18,997 nt of DNA from the UHGV virus genome UHGV-0102822; one strand, given 5' to 3'. This document shows, piece by piece, positions 1,669 to 18,997 of the stretch. Source of the DNA: a virus. Position 1 is the stretch's first letter, and each line of letters opens with the position of its first letter. The notes beneath the pieces are model-generated. The model was not told the DNA's origin. It ran no database searches and saw nothing but the letters and a program-made list of their open reading frames with translations. Position numbers and translations under genes: made by a program.

Positions 1669-3606
1669 ATGCTCAAGTTAAAACGAGAATATACAGTCCA
1701 AGACGTTACTGAAACCGATGGCGTTTTTGAAATCGCATTCAGCTCTGAAACTCCTGTTGAGCGTCAGATTGAAGATGAATACGGACATCCAGTTACGGTT
1801 AATGAAATTCTTGTTCATGACGGTCCTCATAATGCAGACCTTACAAGAATTAATAACGGTGCTGCTTTGCTGTTTAATCACGATTTCGATAAACATCTCG
1901 GAAAAGTAATTCCTGGTTCTGTTCGAATTGATTCAGACCGTATCGGTCGCGCAAATGTCCAATTCAGTAAACATGGCTCTTTAGCCCAAGAAGTTTATGA
2001 AAAAGTCAAAGAAGGAACAATCAGCAAGATTTCTTTCGGATATGACTTGAATGAATATGAACTCAAGGGTCAAGACTTATTAGTTACGCTTTGGTCTCCA
2101 TATGAAATAAGTTTTGTAACTGTTCCTGCTGACGATTCCGTGGGGTTGGGAAGATTACTAAATACAAATAACAAAAGCGTTAAGAAATTACGCGAATTAA
2201 ATTTAACTAACAAAGGTACTCGAATGAAACGCATTGATGAAATGACGAAAGACGAACTGGTAGAAATGACCATTGACGAAATCGAAATGCTGTCCGAAGA
2301 AGATCGCGCGAAACGTGAAGAAATTCTGGAAGAAGTAAAAGTCGAAACTGAAAATTCTGGTGATTCTGCTGTTGTCGAAACTGACAATTCTCCTGCTGTT
2401 GTTCCTGCTGGTGATGAATTAACAGAAGAAGAACGCGAAGAAGAAACGGAAGAAATTCTTGAAATCGCACAGCGCTACAAAGTAGCACAAAAAGACGTTG
2501 CAAGCGCAATCGCTAAAGGCATGACCGCACGTCAATTTAAACGTTCTATTAAACCTAACAAAGCTCCGGCGGTAATTCGTAACATGACTAAAGATACTAA
2601 AGTAAATCTGGAAGATAAATTCGACCTTGGCGATGCTGTTCGCTCTATGATGAATGGTAAAGCTGTTCGTGGCGCTGCTGCTGAATATACACAAGAAATG
2701 ACTCGTAAGCGTCTACAACGTGGTCTTAGCGTTTCAACCGGTATCTATATGCCTGTAAATGCTATTGCTCAGAACTCACGCGCAATTAACACTGTTCCTA
2801 CTGTTTCTCCAATTCAGGAAACTGTTCAGCGTTATGATTCATTCGTTGAAATGCTATTGAAAGGTACTGTTGCTGATAAATTGGGTGTTAACTTCCTGAC
2901 TGGTTTGAAAACTCCGATTTCTGTACCAAAACAAACTAAATCTTCTGTTGAAGCATTCGGTTTCGTTGATGAAAACGGTGAATCTCCAGAAGGCGAAAGC
3001 GCATTCACCAACATTAAGTTTGAACCAAAAACATTTACTGGTGGTAACCCAATTTCTCGTCAAGCTCTGTTGACTCTGCCAAATCTGGGCGCTTTCATTT
3101 CTGACCACATTGTTAAGCACTCACGCGCTAAACTGGAAGGTCTGATGTTTGGTTCTCTGACTGATGCTAAAGCACCTGATTCAATCGTTGCTCAGTTGAC
3201 TGCACAGGCAATGGGAATGACCTACAAAGAGTTCATCGTTGAAGCTGCAAAAGCTAAAGGCAATGGCGTTGATATGGCTGCATTTAAATATCTGATGGCT
3301 GCTGCTCTTGAAGGTGATTTGAAAACCACTCTGCGTGATGCTGGTGTTTCTGGTTATATCATCGACGACATGAACAAAATCGGCGGACATGATGTTATCG
3401 GTTCTGGTCTGGTTAAAGATGGTCAGGTTATCTCTGGTGACTTCTCCGCTGTAACTGTAGCTGAATGGGAAGGTCTTGCTCTTGACCTAGACGACACAAC
3501 TTATCGTAACAAAGGCGCTATCGTTCCTCGCGTTTGGGCTGATATCGATTGGAAAGTTTGTGCTGACGATCGTCTGTTCCTGCACGAAAAAAAGACGGGA
3601 GCTTAA
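1669..3606 (+). CDS. prohead protease (HK97 gp4 / peptidase S78-like) fused to an acidic scaffold-like linker and an HK97-fold major capsid protein domain
   Basis: The N-terminal ~165 aa align by eye with HK97 gp4 protease, including the His (LFNHDFD) and Ser (ISKISFGYD) catalytic contexts and the ISFVTVPADD segment. The middle is an acidic helical stretch (EEEREEETEEILEIAQRY). The C-terminal ~370 aa have an HK97-type capsid character (GDFSAVTVAEWEGLALDLDD, DDRLFLHEKK tail). The gene is followed by a strong terminator, as expected for a highly expressed capsid gene. Confidence 0.75.
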   Translation: MLKLKREYTVQDVTETDGVFEIAFSSETPVERQIEDEYGHPVTVNEILVHDGPHNADLTRINNGAALLFNHDFDKHLGKVIPGSVRIDSDRIGRANVQFSKHGSLAQEVYEKVKEGTISKISFGYDLNEYELKGQDLLVTLWSPYEISFVTVPADDSVGLGRLLNTNNKSVKKLRELNLTNKGTRMKRIDEMTKDELVEMTIDEIEMLSEEDRAKREEILEEVKVETENSGDSAVVETDNSPAVVPAGDELTEEEREEETEEILEIAQRYKVAQKDVASAIAKGMTARQFKRSIKPNKAPAVIRNMTKDTKVNLEDKFDLGDAVRSMMNGKAVRGAAAEYTQEMTRKRLQRGLSVSTGIYMPVNAIAQNSRAINTVPTVSPIQETVQRYDSFVEMLLKGTVADKLGVNFLTGLKTPISVPKQTKSSVEAFGFVDENGESPEGESAFTNIKFEPKTFTGGNPISRQALLTLPNLGAFISDHIVKHSRAKLEGLMFGSLTDAKAPDSIVAQLTAQAMGMTYKEFIVEAAKAKGNGVDMAAFKYLMAAALEGDLKTTLRDAGVSGYIIDDMNKIGGHDVIGSGLVKDGQVISGDFSAVTVAEWEGLALDLDDTTYRNKGAIVPRVWADIDWKVCADDRLFLHEKKTGA

Positions 3607-9001: not shown

Positions 9002-9418
9002 ATGTTTAAATTTCAAGCTGACTTATCAAAATTATTAAATCGTTATATCAACAAAGAACACAAATACGGTCAAAACGACTGTAATATCCTTGTCGCTGAA
9101 TATATCGATATGACTTGCGGAACAGATTACGCAAGCAAACTTATTTCCAAATATGACTCTGTTCAATCGGGTTTAAAACACTGCAAAGAACTTACAGGTT
9201 TTAATAACGTTTTAGAAGCTTGTGAAAAGCATTTCGAAAAATCAAACATTATCGAAACAGGGTCAATTGTCTTAATTAAAAAAACATACAGACGCCGAGT
9301 TTATTACGTTGCGTCGATTGTCTTTAACGACAAAGCAATTATTGAACACAACAACAAATACGCTTTGATAAACGTAAAAGATTTTGAATACGAATTAATT
9401 TTTAACAGGAGAAAATAA
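9002..9418 (+). CDS. NlpC/P60-type tail assembly protein (lambda gpK C-terminal domain-like)
   Basis: 138 aa from ATG 9002; the track's GTG 8990 overlaps the SD. Cys-His-His spacing typical of NlpC/P60 (QNDCNILVAEY ... IIEHNNKYALI). Sits directly upstream of the gpJ-like gene, as gpK does in lambda. Confidence 0.55.
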   Translation: MFKFQADLSKLLNRYINKEHKYGQNDCNILVAEYIDMTCGTDYASKLISKYDSVQSGLKHCKELTGFNNVLEACEKHFEKSNIIETGSIVLIKKTYRRRVYYVASIVFNDKAIIEHNNKYALINVKDFEYELIFNRRK

Positions 9419-12400
9419 TGGCTATTGTCGCAATTGGTGCAATCATCGCTGGTGCTTCTGCTGGTCTTGCTGCTTATGCCGCTGGGATGGCATTAGCTAT
9501 TTCAATCGGTATTGGTGTTGCTGTTGCTGCTGTTTCCGCTTTAATGTCAACAGCTATGCAACCAACTGTTCCTCGATTTAATACAAGTGATACCGCAACA
9601 ACATTAGGAACAACGTCTGATCCTTCAACTGTATTACCGATTATCTACGGTGAACAACGCACAGGAACAATTAACGTTTGGGATGCTGTAGGAAATGATA
9701 CGACTTATTTGGTGCAAATTTTTGCAATTGCCGAAGGTGAAGTTGATAGCTTTAAAAACCTTTATATCGATAACAAGCGTATTCTGAATGATGCCGTTTA
9801 TCGTGATGGAATTGTTTCAAGAGGTTCAATCGTTTCTCAATATCAAGACTATGTGCAAGTTGAATTCTCTGTTGGTAAAGAACAAGGTCATCATTTCAAA
9901 CTTGCTGAACAATACTTAGGAAATGACCCAAGTGGCTGGCCTGTTTCTGCTACAGGTAACGGTGTCGCTTCTTGCTGTATCGTAATGCAGAAACGAAATT
10001 CAGACTTACAAAACCAAGCTGATATCCTACAACCTAACAGTCAGGTCGCTGTTGATGTTAGAGGACGTTTGATTACTGACTTAAACACGGGACAAATCGT
10101 TCCATCTCGCAACGGTGCAAGTCAGATTGTCGATTATCTGACGAACGAACGATACGGATTAGGAGTTTCACTTGATAAAATTAACCTTGATAGTTTTAAA
10201 GCTGCTGCAAATTATGCTTTAAGCAATCAACTATTTTCCGATGGTGCAACAGACCCTAACGCAACGTTTAAAGAAAACTTAACTCAGCTTGCAGGTGCTT
10301 TTAACGGAATGATTTTCGAATCATTCGGACAAGTTTATTGCAAAATCGATGGTCCTGATGTTGTTTCATTTGATTTCGATGAAGAAAATATTTCTGCTGG
10401 TTCAGTTTCGTTGAATTCAGGTGGTTCAGAGGAATATTACAATACGCTGAACGTGAAATATCAAGATCCTGCAATCGATTATTCCGAGCAAGTTCTTCGT
10501 TATCCATCTGACGTGACGACCGACAAAACAATTCAATATGATAAACGTATTATCGCGAAAGATGTTAATTATCGTTTTGTGAAATCTAAAGACCAATTGG
10601 ACAAACTTGCTTCAATCGAACGTAACAAATCACTGTTAAAACAGATTATCAGCTTTAGTTCTCCTGATTCCTATACTATTCAAGTTTGGGATGTTATCAG
10701 AGTTAACTTTGATGAATTAAATTTGCAAGATTCGTTATGGCGCGTTACTAACGTTAGTCGTTCAATGAATAAGGGCGTTGCTGGTATCGTTAACATCACA
10801 GCTACTGAATATATTGAAGAAGTTTATACCGATTTAGACTATGCGAAAGATCCTAATAACAACGGTTCAAACGTACCAAACAAAGGATACTTGATTGCTC
10901 CTACGAATCTTAAAGTTTCAAGCGTTTCAGAAACAGCTTTAGGAAGAACTTTTAAAGTTTCATGGAATTCAGAGCAAGATTTTAACCGTTCAGGTTTTTA
11001 TATTCAATATGCAGTTGCAGGAACAAACCAATGGACTCAAGCAGGATTCACATCAGGAAATTCTTACTTGATTATGAACATGGACCCATTGCAGAAATAT
11101 GATATTCGTGTTTGTGCTTCTGGTGTTTTCTATACGTCTGAATGGGTTTATTCAATGAATGTTAACCCTGATGTCGTTTATAATCTGCCTAAAGTTCGTG
11201 GTCTAAGACTTGTTAACTCTGAGTTTAATAACAACGTTACGCAACAAACGCAATTTGAATTTGCATGGGATAATCAGAGTTCAGAGAAATTCGAAGTTGA
11301 CGGCGTTCAACAGACTTTCGAACAAGTATTTCAGTATTACGAAATCAAAATCACTGGACAAAGACCTGTTGTATACAGAACTAAAGATTTGAGCTTCATT
11401 TATGATTTACGAATGAACCAGCAAAACGGTATCAGTCGTGAAATTAAATTTGAAATCACTGCTGTTGGTTATTCAGGTTTAAGATCTGAACCTACTGAAT
11501 TAATCGTAAGAAATAATCAAGCTCCTGCAATAATCGGTTTTACTGCTTCGAATGGTCCTGGATTATTGATGTGTTCTTGGAACGATCCAATGAGTGTTGC
11601 ACCTGATTATTCTGGAACTGTTATTCAAGTTTCAAATAATCCTGAATTCACTGACATTAATCAAGTTCAGTTGAGTTCTAGCCAGTTCATTGAAAACTTC
11701 CCGTTAGTTGACGGTGAATATTATGTTCGAGCTGCATGGTATGACGTTTTCGGACAAGACCAATTAGTTTGGACTGAATCAGTTTATATCAACATGAAAT
11801 GGGATATTCCATGGACAGAAGATATGAAAGACCAGTTAAACGACTTGCTTGATTTAGACCAACGAGTTGATGGTGCTATCGAGGACGCTTTAGAACTCGC
11901 AAATGCTTATACCGATACTCAGATAACATCAACTAAGCAGGAAGTAACAACCGAGATTGATCAGAAGATCAGCACGTCTAATACAACGTTGCATACTCAG
12001 ATAACGAATGAAACGCAAGGCGCTATCAATCAGGCTATTACGATTCAAACGGCTGATTTTGACGGTAAGTTAAACTCTGCTATAACCGAAGTTGAGAAAA
12101 CCCAAGCGGATGATCGTGCTGCAACAGCTTCACAAATCAGCCAATTAAAAGCTGAAACTACGGATATGGTCGCGACTGTTTCTACCGAAGCAAAAGCAAG
12201 CGTTGACGATTTAGCAGGAACTGTTAACAGTAAATGGGCTGTTTCTACAAACGCCGATGGTGTCGTAGCTGGTATTAGTATGTTGGCATCTAAGGACGCT
12301 GCGGGAAATAAAGCCTCAAGCATTATTTTTAACGCTGATAAGATTGCTATAACAAATAATAACACTGCTCCTAATGCTGTTCCACCGTTCATGGTCGCAG

Positions 12401-13159: not shown

Positions 13160-13456
13160 ATGGGTGTTGAAGCCATCATTTCTTTCGCGGGACTGCTATG
13201 CGCTGGCTTTGGATGGATTTGGTCTCAAAAGAACGCAATGGAAGCCGACGCTTTAAAAATCGAACAGAGACTATCTGAAATCGAGAAAAGCGTTGCTCTT
13301 AATAGTGCGACCGATTCAAACGCAAATACTGAATTAACCAACGTTCGTGATTCGTTTAAGGAGTTTAAAGGTGATATGAAAAGTATAGACAATCGAATTA
13401 GAGAAATCGAAATTCGATTAGCGGTGATAGACAGTGAAACGAAAAGAAATAAATAA
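13160..13456 (+). CDS. small membrane-anchored coiled-coil protein (N-terminal TM helix plus helical domain)
   Basis: 98 aa. N-terminal hydrophobic segment AIISFAGLLCAGFGWIW, followed by heptad-like charged helical sequence (ALKIEQRLSEIEKS ... IDNRIREIEIRLAVID). The architecture resembles an i-spanin or other signal-anchored periplasmic protein, but function is unassigned. Confidence 0.5.
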   Translation: MGVEAIISFAGLLCAGFGWIWSQKNAMEADALKIEQRLSEIEKSVALNSATDSNANTELTNVRDSFKEFKGDMKSIDNRIREIEIRLAVIDSETKRNK

Positions 13457-13889
13457 TTACAAGAAAACCCTTTTTGATAAACAAAATAAAAGATGTGCTT
13501 TAACTGGGATAGAAATTACCGATGTTAATAAAGCCCATTTAGACCATGACCACGCTCTTGATGGTTCTCAAGCTGGACGATGCCGAGGATTATTACTCGC
13601 ACAGGCAAACGTCCTTGAGGGCAGATTAAAACATCAATTCATGTATTCAGGTTTAGCGAAGCACATCGAATATATTGATTTTTTAAAAAGATTGGTAACT
13701 TATCTCGAAAAAGATAATTCTAAAAATCCTATTCATCCTCAACTTGTAACAGACCTATCAAAGCGCTTTTCGAAAATGACGTTAAAGCAAATGAAAGAGA
13801 CTTTATTAGCAGAGGACATAAATCCAGTTGGTGATAAAAAATCTCTCATTAACTTGTACAAACAAAATTTAAAGGTGAAGTATGATTGA
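13434..13889 (+). CDS. recombination endonuclease VII homolog (T4 gp49-like, His-Me/HNH-type junction resolvase)
   Basis: 151 aa from GTG 13434, overlapping the upstream ORF by 23 nt. Clear similarity to T4 endonuclease VII as I recall it: HLDHDH, AG-x-x-RGLL, N...LEG..KH.F, SGL, and LVTYLEKDNSKNPIHPQLV versus T4 LLTYLKSDYTQNNIHPNFV. Confidence 0.8.
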   Translation: MKRKEINNYKKTLFDKQNKRCALTGIEITDVNKAHLDHDHALDGSQAGRCRGLLLAQANVLEGRLKHQFMYSGLAKHIEYIDFLKRLVTYLEKDNSKNPIHPQLVTDLSKRFSKMTLKQMKETLLAEDINPVGDKKSLINLYKQNLKVKYD

Positions 13890-15731: not shown

Positions 15732-18077
15732 ATGGCGAATTCTCGTTATGATGTTGAGATTCGCGGAGATAATAAAGGACTGTCTACTGCTGTAAAAGAC
15801 TCTATGGACGAACTGAATAAACTTGATTCAGCCGCTCAGGGTCTTTTTAGTAATTTCACAGGTCCACTAAATGGTCTCAGCGATGGTCTCAGCACGATTC
15901 AAAGTATGTCCCCTGCGTTACGCGCATTGGGTGCAGCGGGGTTAGTTGCAGGTGCTGGTTTTGCTGCAATTAATAAAGCTGCTGAAACTGTTAACGTATT
16001 AAATCAGGTTAACACAACAACTGGCGTTTCTATTGAAATGCTTCAACAGTTGCAATCAACGTTCAAAGCTACCGGAATGGACGTTGAGAAATTCGGTGAT
16101 TTAAACAAAGACGCAATGGATAAACTCGGTGATTCTTTGAGAGCTGGCGGTGGTGGTATTGCCGACGACTTAGAAGAATGGGGTTTAAAACTTGAAGATT
16201 ATGCAAAATATGCTGGTGATGCCGAAGGTGGTATTAAAGCATTAATCGACACGTTCTATCAATTAAGAGCCGCTGGTAAATCATCTGCTGAAATTACTAA
16301 CGCAATGGAATCAATGGCGTCTGATGGTTCTCATTTGATTTCAACATTACAGAATTTTTCTAATACCCAAGACGCATTAAACGCAATTCAAGGTCAAACA
16401 GTTTCAATTACTCAAGACGTTGCCGACGAATTCAAAGAATATGAAAGAAACATGAATTCTTTGAAGAAAGCAACTAATGAATTCACGGTCGAAGCTGCTA
16501 GTCCATTAGTTCGTGAATTTAACAATCTTTATGAGTGGATGGATGGTATTGATTGGAGTGAAACGTCTTTTGCGAAATGGCTAAGAGAGAATAACAAAAA
16601 GGGTATAACTCCTTCTGGTATGTCCTCTGGTCAAGTGCAGAATATCGGAAAGTCTGTTGAAGCAATCGAAATTGAAAAGCGTCAGGCGTTTATTGCAGAA
16701 AATGCCAAGTTGCTTAAAAAACAAGTTAATCAGCTAGTTCGTTTAGCTGAACAAGAAACGATGGCAAATAAGGCTCGCCAGAAAGTCTTAGAAGAAAAAG
16801 CGAAGAAAGAAAAAGACGCTGCTGATAAAGCTGAACGTGAAAGAAAATCTGCTGCTGATAAAGCCGAAAGGGAACGTAAAGCTGCAATGGCTAAAGCCAA
16901 AGCTGATTATGACAAAATGATGGCTGATCGTGCTCAGGCAGTTGAATCTCTGAAACAGTTAGACGTTGCGGTTATTGCTCAAGAAGGACGTTCATATGCT
17001 TCTCAGATTAATCAGACTCAGCAAGCACTAACAAAGCTTCAAGAACTAAGAGACAAAGGGATAATCTCACAGGAGCAATTCCTAGAACGTCGTAATTCTC
17101 TATTGATTAACTCGTCAAAAGAATTCTCCGACAGTCTTAAGGCTAATCCTGCTGACATTGGCATTATCACTCAGTCGATGAATCAAATGTTCGATATTCA
17201 AAAGCAAGAACTGGATATTAAACGTCAACAGAACTTGATTTCAGAACAGCAATACAACGAACAGTTAGAGAATCTCCAAATTGCACATCAAGAGAAGATG
17301 AAAGCAATTAAAGAGATTGATGCTAATCAGGTGAATATGCAGAACTTGAATTCAATTGGTTTCGCAACTGATGAAGAAAGAATGGCATTAGAGCAAGAAG
17401 CATTAAATCAACAGTTCGAAAGGTTCAGAGAACAGAATCAGAAAATGTACGAATCTGGACTTTTGTCGCATGAACAATTTTTAGAGCAAAAAAGACGACT
17501 AGACAAGGCTTATTCTGTTCAGTCTGAAAATATTGCTATGATGGAAATTCAAACGAAAATGGGAATGTATAACGGTTTTGCTCAAGGCATGGCTGGTGTT
17601 ATTTCCGGTATTTCGGGTGAAAACTCTAAAGCCGCTCAAGCTGCGTTTGCAGTAGCTAAAGGAACAGCTATCGCAAATGGTATGTTAAACGCATATCAAT
17701 CTGCAACTAAAGCAATGGCAACTTATCCTGGTCCTTTGGGATACGCATTAGCCGCATCAAGTTATGCGCAAGTTTTAGGACAAGTTATGTCCATGAAATC
17801 TGTGAATATGACTGGTATGGCTCACGATGGCATTTCTGAAATTCCAAGAGAAGGAACATGGCTGCTTGATGGTGGTGAAAGAGTCGTTGATCAGAGAACT
17901 AACGGAGATTTGAAAGACTTCTTGAATAATCAAAGCGAGTCTAAGACTCAGCCTATTGATGCTCGTGTAATCGTACAAGGAAACGTGACTGATCAGCGTT
18001 GGTTTGCTGAACAACTCAAGAAGCAAGAAAAGATTATCACATCAATTGTTCAATCAGGAAACAGACGCAAAATGTAA
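15732..18077 (+). CDS. tail tape measure protein
   Basis: 781 aa. Long predicted helical, charged coiled-coil central region with an internal tandem repeat (AADKAERERK x2), and a Gly/Ala-rich hydrophobic segment near the C-terminus (AQAAFAVAKGTAIANGMLNAYQSATKAMATYPGPLGYALAASSYAQVLG). Preceded by the chaperone pair. Confidence 0.8.
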   Translation: MANSRYDVEIRGDNKGLSTAVKDSMDELNKLDSAAQGLFSNFTGPLNGLSDGLSTIQSMSPALRALGAAGLVAGAGFAAINKAAETVNVLNQVNTTTGVSIEMLQQLQSTFKATGMDVEKFGDLNKDAMDKLGDSLRAGGGGIADDLEEWGLKLEDYAKYAGDAEGGIKALIDTFYQLRAAGKSSAEITNAMESMASDGSHLISTLQNFSNTQDALNAIQGQTVSITQDVADEFKEYERNMNSLKKATNEFTVEAASPLVREFNNLYEWMDGIDWSETSFAKWLRENNKKGITPSGMSSGQVQNIGKSVEAIEIEKRQAFIAENAKLLKKQVNQLVRLAEQETMANKARQKVLEEKAKKEKDAADKAERERKSAADKAERERKAAMAKAKADYDKMMADRAQAVESLKQLDVAVIAQEGRSYASQINQTQQALTKLQELRDKGIISQEQFLERRNSLLINSSKEFSDSLKANPADIGIITQSMNQMFDIQKQELDIKRQQNLISEQQYNEQLENLQIAHQEKMKAIKEIDANQVNMQNLNSIGFATDEERMALEQEALNQQFERFREQNQKMYESGLLSHEQFLEQKRRLDKAYSVQSENIAMMEIQTKMGMYNGFAQGMAGVISGISGENSKAAQAAFAVAKGTAIANGMLNAYQSATKAMATYPGPLGYALAASSYAQVLGQVMSMKSVNMTGMAHDGISEIPREGTWLLDGGERVVDQRTNGDLKDFLNNQSESKTQPIDARVIVQGNVTDQRWFAEQLKKQEKIITSIVQSGNRRKM
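16818..16883 (+). repeat. imperfect 33-bp tandem duplication inside the tape measure gene
   Basis: GCTGCTGATAAAGCTGAACGTGAAAGAAAATCT followed by GCTGCTGATAAAGCCGAAAGGGAACGTAAAGCT, encoding AADKAERERKS / AADKAERERKA. The Arg codons are swapped between synonymous forms. Confidence 0.7.
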
Positions 18078-18106: not shown

Positions 18107-18142
18107 GGGCGATTAAAATCGCCCATTAATTATTTTCTTTTT
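18107..18142 (+). terminator. terminator between the convergent tape measure gene and the minus-strand cassette
   Basis: GGGCGAT-TAAA-ATCGCCC hairpin followed by ATTAATTATTTTCTTTTT on the + strand. It lies in the 70-bp gap between the two convergent stop codons, so it may act on both strands. Confidence 0.6.
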
Positions 18143-18147
18143 AAAAA

Positions 18148-18504
18148 CTAAAGCACAGCCTGAAAACTTTGCCACTCAGGTGCATGCATAAGTACCGCGC
18201 TTTGTTCATTTCTATTCCAAATAGGAATCGCTTTCCCTATATAGAAAAAATGTGATGTTGCATCATTACTTTTCTTTTCACTACTTTTTCCTGCTTTTGT
18301 ATATACGACAACAAGATCGCCAGCGCGAACAGGTTTATCCGGAAACCAAAATGTTTCGTAAATACCAGTGTTTACCGACTCATTCTCAAATCCCGTTTGT
18401 AGCAGTATAAACTCTCCAATATTGCATGAACTGTCAACTCGAATGACAATTCGTTCCTTATCTAAGTTTCCAGGTTCGCGAATTGCTGTAATATTAACTT
18501 TCAT
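18148..18504 (-). CDS. hypothetical small soluble protein, second gene of the minus-strand cassette
   Basis: 118 aa. Its ATG overlaps the stop of the upstream membrane-protein gene by 4 bp, suggesting translational coupling. No recognisable motif. Confidence 0.55.
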   Translation of the reverse strand: MKVNITAIREPGNLDKERIVIRVDSSCNIGEFILLQTGFENESVNTGIYETFWFPDKPVRAGDLVVVYTKAGKSSEKKSNDATSHFFYIGKAIPIWNRNEQSAVLMHAPEWQSFQAVL

Positions 18505-18947
18505 GGCTTGACCACCTTTGCAGCTATCCCCCCGACAGTGAGCACACTACCAAAAGCTAACGCGAGCACAGCGGCAGTCGGCTGAGTTGACCAGTTTGAA
18601 GTGGCATATCCAAAGGCAGAGCCTGAAATTAGAAAACATGTCACATGCATTATTTCCAAAGCAATTTTTGTTTTGAATTTTTCTTCTAATACTCCTACAA
18701 GTTTATCGGATGTATGAAACTTATCGCGAATCACACGCAAATCATTGCATTCACCATCTAATCTTTCAATCTCATCAAGCAACATTCGTTGTACCGCAGC
18801 AGAGCTAAGCTCCTCATCAGTTAGCTCTCTGCGAAGATTTGAGAATGATTTGCGTCCAGAATTCCCCTTGGGAACAGCTGTTGGTATCCCCACACTTACA
18901 GGCTCTTCTGGTTCCGTATCAGGTTGATGCCTATTCCCAAAAACCAC
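18501..18947 (-). CDS. hypothetical membrane protein (cytoplasmic helical N-domain plus two C-terminal TM helices), first gene of the minus-strand cassette
   Basis: Probable GTG start at 18947, 6 nt after a perfect AAGGAG; the track's TTG 18971 lies upstream of that SD. C-terminal hydrophobic helices IALEIMHVTCFLISGSAFGYA and TAAVLALAFGSVLTVGGIAAKVV. Uses GC-ending codons (ccg, gcg, gcc, cag, ctc, ggg) that are unusual for the phage late genes. Confidence 0.55.
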   Translation of the reverse strand: MVFGNRHQPDTEPEEPVSVGIPTAVPKGNSGRKSFSNLRRELTDEELSSAAVQRMLLDEIERLDGECNDLRVIRDKFHTSDKLVGVLEEKFKTKIALEIMHVTCFLISGSAFGYATSNWSTQPTAAVLALAFGSVLTVGGIAAKVVKP

Positions 18948-18972
18948 GAAATGCTCCTTTCGTATATTCAAA

Positions 18973-18978
18973 ATTGTA
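18973..18978 (-). promoter_or_regulatory. sigma70-type -10-like hexamer TACAAT upstream of the minus-strand cassette
   Basis: On the minus strand, TACAAT lies about 26 nt upstream of the GTG start, with AAGGAG in between. The -35 region would fall outside the window. No CTAAATAA late motif is present here. Confidence 0.3.
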
Positions 18979-18997
18979 GCTAATTAATCGAAGGATC

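Follow-up and report, generated by a model that had tools for sequence, protein, structure and literature searches.

Structure of the cassette and its integration site

The viral genome UHGV-0102822 was analysed as a single stretch of 18,997 nucleotides (the window), which contains one long plus-strand late operon encoding the portal, a protease-capsid fusion, the tail fibre, the tail tip and the tape measure protein. At the end of this tail module lies the subject of this work, a cassette of two minus-strand genes here called A and B. Gene A (18947..18501, minus strand) begins with GTG and encodes a protein of 148 amino acids (aa); gene B (18504..18148, minus strand) encodes a protein of 118 aa, and the two share a 4-bp ATGA stop/start overlap at 18501-18504. 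Both converge on the tape measure gene (15732-18077, plus strand), whose product of 781 aa matches annotated tape measure proteins. An earlier reading of the bare sequence by a model (the original prediction) had described them as the only two minus-strand genes, overlapping by 4 bp and convergent with the tape measure gene, and this description proved accurate: the other minus-strand open reading frames (ORFs) of at least 95 aa all lie within plus-strand genes. The part of the cassette insertion that falls in the window spans 18126..18997 (minus strand) and is absent from cassette-free relatives.

The open frame of gene A, as first called, covered 18501-18971. The TTG codon at 18971 was discarded as a start, as it overlaps a candidate -10 element and has no Shine-Dalgarno sequence. 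The likely start is the GTG at 18947, because it stands six bases after the Shine-Dalgarno sequence AAAGGAG (18960..18954, minus strand; invariant in four prophage copies) and because the resulting 148 aa is the length found in public assemblies.

The window corresponds to the right arm of a prophage, which is integrated in the 5' end of ybiT. An exact-match look-up of protein B retrieved many enterobacterial chromosomes, in which the cassette is always followed by ldtB, ybiR, mntR, mntS, opgE and ompX. The complete genome of E. coli L3Cip3 has a related ~36-kb prophage between ldtB and ybiT, whose ybiT end encodes a large serine recombinase and whose ldtB end carries the cassette. The host element is a temperate siphophage that uses a large serine recombinase to integrate within the first codons of ybiT. 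Comparison with the empty site in ~5,400 prophage-free E. coli genomes placed the prophage/host junction inside the first ~8 codons of ybiT, ~85 bp past the end of the window (position 18997). Since the junction is so close, the cassette consists of exactly two genes; the suggestion that it might run on past the window edge was not borne out, there being no further genes. Integration leaves a ybiT stub of nine codons (MLVSSNVTI*; 9396-9423 of the near-identical contig L001), which, together with the native upstream region of ybiT, points into the cassette on the same strand. The opposite prophage end provides a near-synonymous substitute for the ybiT N-terminus (37625-37700 in the L3Cip3 relative, L017), and the serine recombinase gene starts only 40 bp away from it. 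By this geometry, ybiT is cut off from its native upstream region.

The cassette is a moron with its own recent history

Prophages of this family were found at the ldtB/ybiT site in seven complete E. coli genomes, four with the cassette and three without it. In the three cassette-free prophages, a short terminator comes after the tape measure stop, then ~30 bp of sequence and the attachment-site (att) junction. Alignment of the cassette-bearing and empty slots delimits an insertion of ~900 bp, which starts just after the tape measure terminator, extends ~65 bp past the window and ends ~20 bp before the phage/host junction in ybiT. In a more distant relative, whose tape measure is 56% identical, homology to the window stops exactly at the tape measure stop; the slot is occupied there by a convergent gene of 474 aa (L030 6543-7967, minus strand), which is unrelated to the cassette, has no Pfam domain and matches the PADLOC candidate HEC-07 (E 2e-8). 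Because this relative carries different cargo at the same place, the att-proximal slot of the phage family is a cargo hotspot.

The degree of sequence conservation changes sharply at the cassette. When the window is compared with the L3Cip3 prophage, identity is 91.0% for gene B and 93.7% for gene A, against 54–73% for the last kb of the tape measure gene and 60% for the intergenic hairpin region; the tape measure proteins as a whole are 53% identical. The A and B proteins of the same two prophages are 95% identical, and the ratios of nonsynonymous to synonymous substitution (dN/dS) of 0.11 for A and 0.05 for B indicate that both genes are under purifying selection. The contrast in identity between cassette and flanks, together with these ratios, gives the cassette a recent history of its own under selection. 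Judged by the criteria for morons in the Hendrix/Juhala sense, as defined in PMC3594210, these comparisons identify it as a dispensable cargo moron, separate from the late structural operon. The original prediction of a horizontally acquired moron is supported by the absence from the three E. coli prophages at the same site, the different cargo of the more distant relative, the identity contrast, close homologues of the pair outside phages and a deviating codon choice (both below); conservation of the pair at this junction across all relatives, which would have spoken against it, was not found.

Base composition and codon use

The segment coding for the transmembrane (TM) helices of protein A had been estimated at about 56% GC, and the measured value over 18505-18600 is 56.25%, a level reached by 0.11% of 96-bp segments. 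GC content by codon position in this segment is 0.53 at the first position (GC1), 0.57 at the second (GC2) and 0.43 at the third (GC3). The peak is therefore due to the first and second codon positions of Ala/Gly-rich membrane helices. Taken over whole genes, GC3 of the cassette is 0.277 and 0.342, within the range of the phage genes (0.23–0.35), and its overall GC content is 41% vs 38.5%. An origin of the codon anomaly in GC3 was thus rejected, as GC3 is normal and the GC peak reflects amino-acid composition.

Codon choice given the amino acids does deviate, with z scores of -3.5 for gene B and -7.0 for gene A, against +2.5 to -2.7 for 17 structural genes. The clearest single departure is GGG, which accounts for 5 of the 11 glycine codons as compared with 17 of 411 in the background. 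The claim of codon usage unlike that of the phage, which had rested on five codons, therefore stands in its GGG preference and in the whole-gene scores; the other four contrasts (CCG, GCG, CAG and CTC) did not hold and GC3 is normal. A deviation from the phage background exists, though not as described.

Signals for expression

Between the stop codons of the tape measure gene (18077) and gene B (18148) there is a hairpin, GGGCGATTAAAATCGCCC (18107-18124, both strands), which had been described as common to the two converging genes. It folds on both strands, with energies of -12 kcal/mol on the plus strand and -13.8 kcal/mol on the minus strand (z about -2.5), and in this respect the description is correct. 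A terminator scan calls it on the plus strand only, where a run of T follows, and its candidacy as a bidirectional terminator was dropped because there is no such run on the minus strand. The hairpin is predicted to be a good intrinsic terminator for the tape measure and tail operon; a like role for the cassette appears doubtful. Cassette-free relatives carry a hairpin of their own at the corresponding place.

Upstream of gene A, the TACAAT described as sigma70-like is present at 18978..18973 (minus strand) and conserved; it is a candidate -10 element, but it has no acceptable -35 and is not reported by a consensus promoter scan. An extended -10, TGgTATTAT, also conserved, lies ~30 bp past the end of the window (about L001 9476-9484). 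These two elements are all that was found, and there is no full consensus promoter for the cassette. Expression of the cassette independently of the late operon is plausible from these signals. It is likewise plausible that transcription from the ybiT promoter reads through into A and B in the lysogen, because the ybiT upstream region and its stub face the cassette.

A separate motif had been proposed for the structural genes. The octamer CTAAATAA occurs seven times in the window, always on the plus strand (1612, 3707, 8361, 8395, 8974, 13123 and 14626), against an expectation of 1.3, and none of 200 shuffled sequences reached seven occurrences. The copies lie at or near gene boundaries of the structural operon, and the octamer may be a phage-specific late promoter or regulatory motif.

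Predicted structures of proteins A and B

Protein A was expected to combine a helical N-terminal domain with two C-terminal TM helices, and hydropathy analysis places these helices at residues 95–113 and 125–143. Its AlphaFold2 model has predicted local-distance difference test (pLDDT) values above 90 over residues 50–146. The protein starts with a disordered, acidic N-terminus containing a conserved PDxEP, which is followed by a conserved basic/acidic stretch and then by one long helix (residues 50–117) that continues into the first TM helix, TM1; a short QPT loop leads to TM2. Since lysines flank the hairpin and the 90-residue head is charged, protein A is predicted to form a helical hairpin in the inner membrane with an N-in/C-in topology, both ends being cytoplasmic. 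Two motifs are nearly invariant across the A family: PDxEPxEP in the disordered head (residues 8–16; 18924..18898) and an E-x-x-H-x-x-C triad at the cytoplasmic start of TM1 (residues 98–104; 18654..18634). Their conservation and position suggest a docking motif for the former and a functional polar cluster at the membrane interface for the latter.

Protein B, which had been described as small and soluble, indeed has 118 aa and no membrane helix. It is a cytoplasmic all-β protein with an Ig-like sandwich of the lamin-tail-domain (LTD) type. The window protein itself does not match the Pfam LTD family PF00932 at E ≤ 1; 15 of 141 relatives of B match it at E ≤ 0.01 (best 4e-7), and the bit scores obtained for two of the relatives (20.6 and 14.3) are both under the gathering score of 34.3. 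Searches of PADLOC-DB v2 gave no match for protein B and a chance-level one for protein A (E 0.064). Sequence-profile searches of the PDB with three alignments returned chance-level matches only, and a Foldseek search of protein B against viral structures returned nothing at E ≤ 0.001. Public copies of A and B are all annotated as hypothetical.

The A–B pair in other genomes

Both families are large. B relatives form 1,119 clusters at 50% identity (E ≤ 1e-3), nearly all of them stand-alone proteins of 115–130 aa, and the A family comprises at least 209 clusters, all of ~140–150 aa and without a Pfam domain. Two apparent fusions in the B family (P0082 and P0197) were set aside, as they look like frameshifted or mis-called A–B pairs or read-throughs from a neighbour. 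A survey of species-representative genomes recovered 46 loci, of which 44, from at least ten phyla, were analysed. In 41 of the 44, B is directly preceded by an A-family gene, and 31 of these 41 pairs have the 4-bp ATGA overlap. The flanks are heterogeneous: 150 neighbours match 127 Pfam families, the commonest being phage integrase with six matches, and no third gene is conserved among them. The pair is therefore a self-contained unit, and A–B is a very widespread, strictly paired and translationally coupled module. Copies with 72–79% amino-acid identity to the enteric proteins occur in Stutzerimonas, Achromobacter, Enterobacter and Symbiopectobacterium, those of the first two genera lying outside phages; such identity across genera points to recent transfer between orders.

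In mobile elements the pair is found in several kinds of cargo slot. In a P2-like phage (L080 9338-11784), it lies between the portal gene gpQ and the replication gene gpA, beside HEPN_AbiV and SMODS genes. The gpQ–gpA hotspot of this phage thus holds several systems, since A–B, the HEPN_AbiV gene and the SMODS cyclase gene are all there, and according to PMC9122126 the corresponding P2 slot is a validated defence hotspot. In a P4-like satellite, the pair adjoins the integrase on the side away from the primase gene, and both this position and the gpQ–gpA hotspot are locations expected of defence genes. Further copies were found at the left end of a Mu-like phage, adjoining the repressor; between the antiterminator Q and the lysis genes of a lambdoid Symbiopectobacterium prophage whose other genes include Abi_alpha/PDC-S47 and a type IV restriction-like gene; after umuDC, at the distal end of an Enterobacter prophage of the lambdoid type; in the gpS–gpV slot of an Aeromonas P2-like prophage; in an integrase/antirepressor islet of Pseudomonas; and in Achromobacter, where the pair adjoins a Fic/VbhA pair.

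Proposed function and alternatives

With a probability of roughly one half, we consider A–B to be a defence or exclusion module expressed by the lysogen. The evidence of context favours defence or exclusion over anti-defence. To the positions in the gpQ–gpA hotspot, beside the P4-like integrase and in the Mu-like, lambdoid and Aeromonas P2-like slots are added the architecture of a membrane hairpin with a soluble partner and the orientation of the ybiT upstream region and stub toward the cassette. In the P4 defence loci, as reported in PMC13586616, genes without known function protected against phage in six of eight random tests, which provides a favourable prior for defence.

A possible mechanism can be outlined. 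In the lysogen, weak sigma-70 signals of the cassette itself would drive its transcription, possibly together with read-through from the ybiT promoter. Protein A would be anchored in the inner membrane by its N-in/C-in hairpin, extend a coiled-coil stalk into the cytoplasm and serve as a membrane effector or gate, and protein B, docking on this stalk or on the conserved N-terminal motif of A, would act as a sensor or regulator. When a second phage infects, either the pair would stop its genome from entering at the membrane, or A would oligomerise and depolarise the membrane, resulting in abortive infection. Either outcome would shield the lysogen population and the resident prophage.

Several observations weigh against a defence or exclusion function. 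Neither protein has a usable match in the Pfam, PHROG, PADLOC or NCBIfam models, and no enzymatic or nucleic-acid-sensing domain is recognisable in A or B. The immediate neighbours of the 44 chromosomal loci show no clear enrichment in defence genes, and many chromosomal copies lie among housekeeping genes (trmB, arfB-like, Hsp70, MreB, GatB). The pair is rare in viral collections, with six loci in 2.9 million IMG/VR contigs, and megablast and tblastn searches with the region and with B found no copy in 50,697 deposited phage genomes. Promoter and minus-strand terminator signals of the cassette match their consensus only weakly, and the interaction of A with B, like any pore-forming or blocking activity, is pure conjecture.

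Some of these observations would fit a lysogenic-conversion or host-fitness factor unrelated to phages, such as a module for envelope or membrane stress, or a scaffold of a coiled coil and a lamin-tail domain, anchored in the membrane, that alters host physiology. Solitary chromosomal copies with housekeeping neighbours are numerous, chromosomes carry the A–B family far more often than viral contigs do, and purifying selection on both genes is strong. Such a factor is nevertheless unlikely, given that the pair recurs in the cargo slots of at least five unrelated types of temperate phage and satellite, among them the validated defence hotspot beside AbiV and SMODS, and that its distribution is patchy, with recent transfer.

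Small helical-hairpin membrane proteins are common toxins, and A could be a membrane-damaging toxin with B as its antitoxin (or the reverse), forming an addiction module that stabilises the prophage or the small islands carrying it and provides defence as a by-product. The small bicistronic operon with its conserved overlap (in 31 of the 41 pairs), the scattering of the pair singly among unrelated neighbours in many phyla, often near integrases, and the Fic/VbhA pair beside the Achromobacter copy would all agree with this. However, a tblastn search with B found none in 72,556 plasmids, no toxin–antitoxin family in Pfam, NCBIfam or PADLOC is matched, the membrane protein comes first in the gene order and, B being an LTD sandwich, there is no DNA-binding antitoxin domain; an addiction module is accordingly less probable still than a host-fitness factor. 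The least probable reading, to which we give very little weight, is a part in the phage's own lytic programme, whether as a holin/antiholin pair, as an anti-defence pair or as a tape-measure-linked accessory in injection or assembly: the cassette adjoins the tape measure gene and its two-helix membrane protein resembles class II holins, but it is absent from three close relatives with an otherwise collinear tail module (over the stretch examined), is transcribed opposite to the structural operon, has no PHROG match, is found in non-phage chromosomal contexts of many phyla and, with the endolysin ~30 kb away in the E. coli relative and none among the genes nearest the pair, shows neither the endolysin/spanin linkage nor the confinement to phages of a holin/antiholin system.

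A broader form of the defence or exclusion reading is put forward more tentatively, at somewhat less than even odds. A–B may found an undescribed, phylum-spanning family of two-gene anti-phage systems, traded as a 0.9-kb unit by temperate phages, satellites and chromosomes. The cytoplasmic LTD-fold protein B would sense infection, perhaps by recognising a phage structural protein or incoming DNA at the membrane, and control the coiled-coil, two-helix protein A; in this prophage, the system would be switched on in the lysogen partly by capture of the ybiT promoter.

If the defence or exclusion function is correct, the cytoplasmic lamin-tail domain would be a new sensor fold in bacterial immunity, and protein A a compact membrane effector in a 0.9-kb module that would be quick to dissect. 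Natural controls are at hand, because isogenic-type prophages with and without the cassette share one chromosomal site. The pair is at the same time only one among many hotspot cargoes that are still uncharacterised. The proposal also offers a functional lead for two large unannotated families, that of B with at least 1,100 clusters and that of A with 200 or more. If the function is not defence, the cassette is still a cleanly delimited moron of unassigned benefit.

Other features of the prophage

The window and its relatives contain further features outside the cassette. The 645-aa protein encoded at 1669-3606 resembles a prohead protease/scaffold fused to a major capsid protein, with an acidic linker at residues ~200–270; in the E. 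coli relative, the annotation of the homologue reads just major capsid protein. The ORF at 13160-13456 encodes 98 aa, with a hydrophobic segment at the N-terminus, and overlaps the gene for a 151-aa Endonuclease VII (13434-13889). Codon usage is mildly deviant in both (z -2.6 and -2.7, respectively), and the Endonuclease VII gene is not called in the otherwise near-identical contig L001; the region 13160-13889 may be a second mobile insertion within the tail module. The L3Cip3 relative encodes a TIR-domain protein with a small upstream gene (L017 30581-31764), which is probably another defence cargo, and has two IS3 copies (16379-17607 and 33394-34622), one of them inserted in the head-tail region.

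Comparison with known systems

The prophage moron is a well-known kind of element, and this one probably follows the logic of a sensor with a membrane effector; the two protein families and their pairing match nothing in the libraries and literature searched. The pair is not described in the literature retrieved for the lamin tail domain in a phage or defence context, for the protein accessions or for ybiT prophages, and the paper on Tai tail-assembly interference contained no matching terms.

One close parallel is the HK97 gp15 moron, which is expressed from the lysogen and blocks genome entry (Cumby et al. 2012, as summarised in PMC3594210). In that summary, gp15 shares with A–B its place in a prophage beside the tape measure gene, the small inner-membrane protein and the homologues outside prophages; it differs in consisting of one gene, a member of the YebO family that lies within the tail operon and has the same orientation. 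A–B, in contrast, has two convergently transcribed genes at the att end and an LTD-fold partner, and no PHROG or Pfam match links the two systems.

A cytoplasmic protein combined with a small membrane protein, carried as prophage or satellite cargo, is also found in lambda RexA/RexB, in the two-helix effectors of CBASS and Pycsar and in the HAD plus membrane-protein system of the P4 hotspots (PMC9122126); the membrane proteins of such systems are thought to be suicide effectors. A–B differs from them in having no PADLOC match, in that B has no nucleotide-signalling or enzymatic domain, and in the long cytoplasmic coiled coil of A. The likeness is one of logic only, and membership in any of these systems is not supported. 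Bacterial LTDs are usually parts of large secreted or surface proteins, whereas protein B is stand-alone, cytoplasmic and coupled to a membrane partner.

In genomic setting, A–B resembles the cargo of the P2 old/tin and P4 psu–int loci (Rousset et al. 2022, PMC9122126; PMC13586616). It occupies the gpQ–gpA slot in one P2-like phage, lies beside int in a P4-like element and is swapped among elements; it is not among the families described in the consulted passages of the two papers. Unlike P2 and P4, the element in the window is an unrelated serine-recombinase siphophage and its slot is the att-proximal end, a third type of cargo slot besides the hotspots of P2 and P4. Integration may itself wire the cargo of such a slot to a host promoter.

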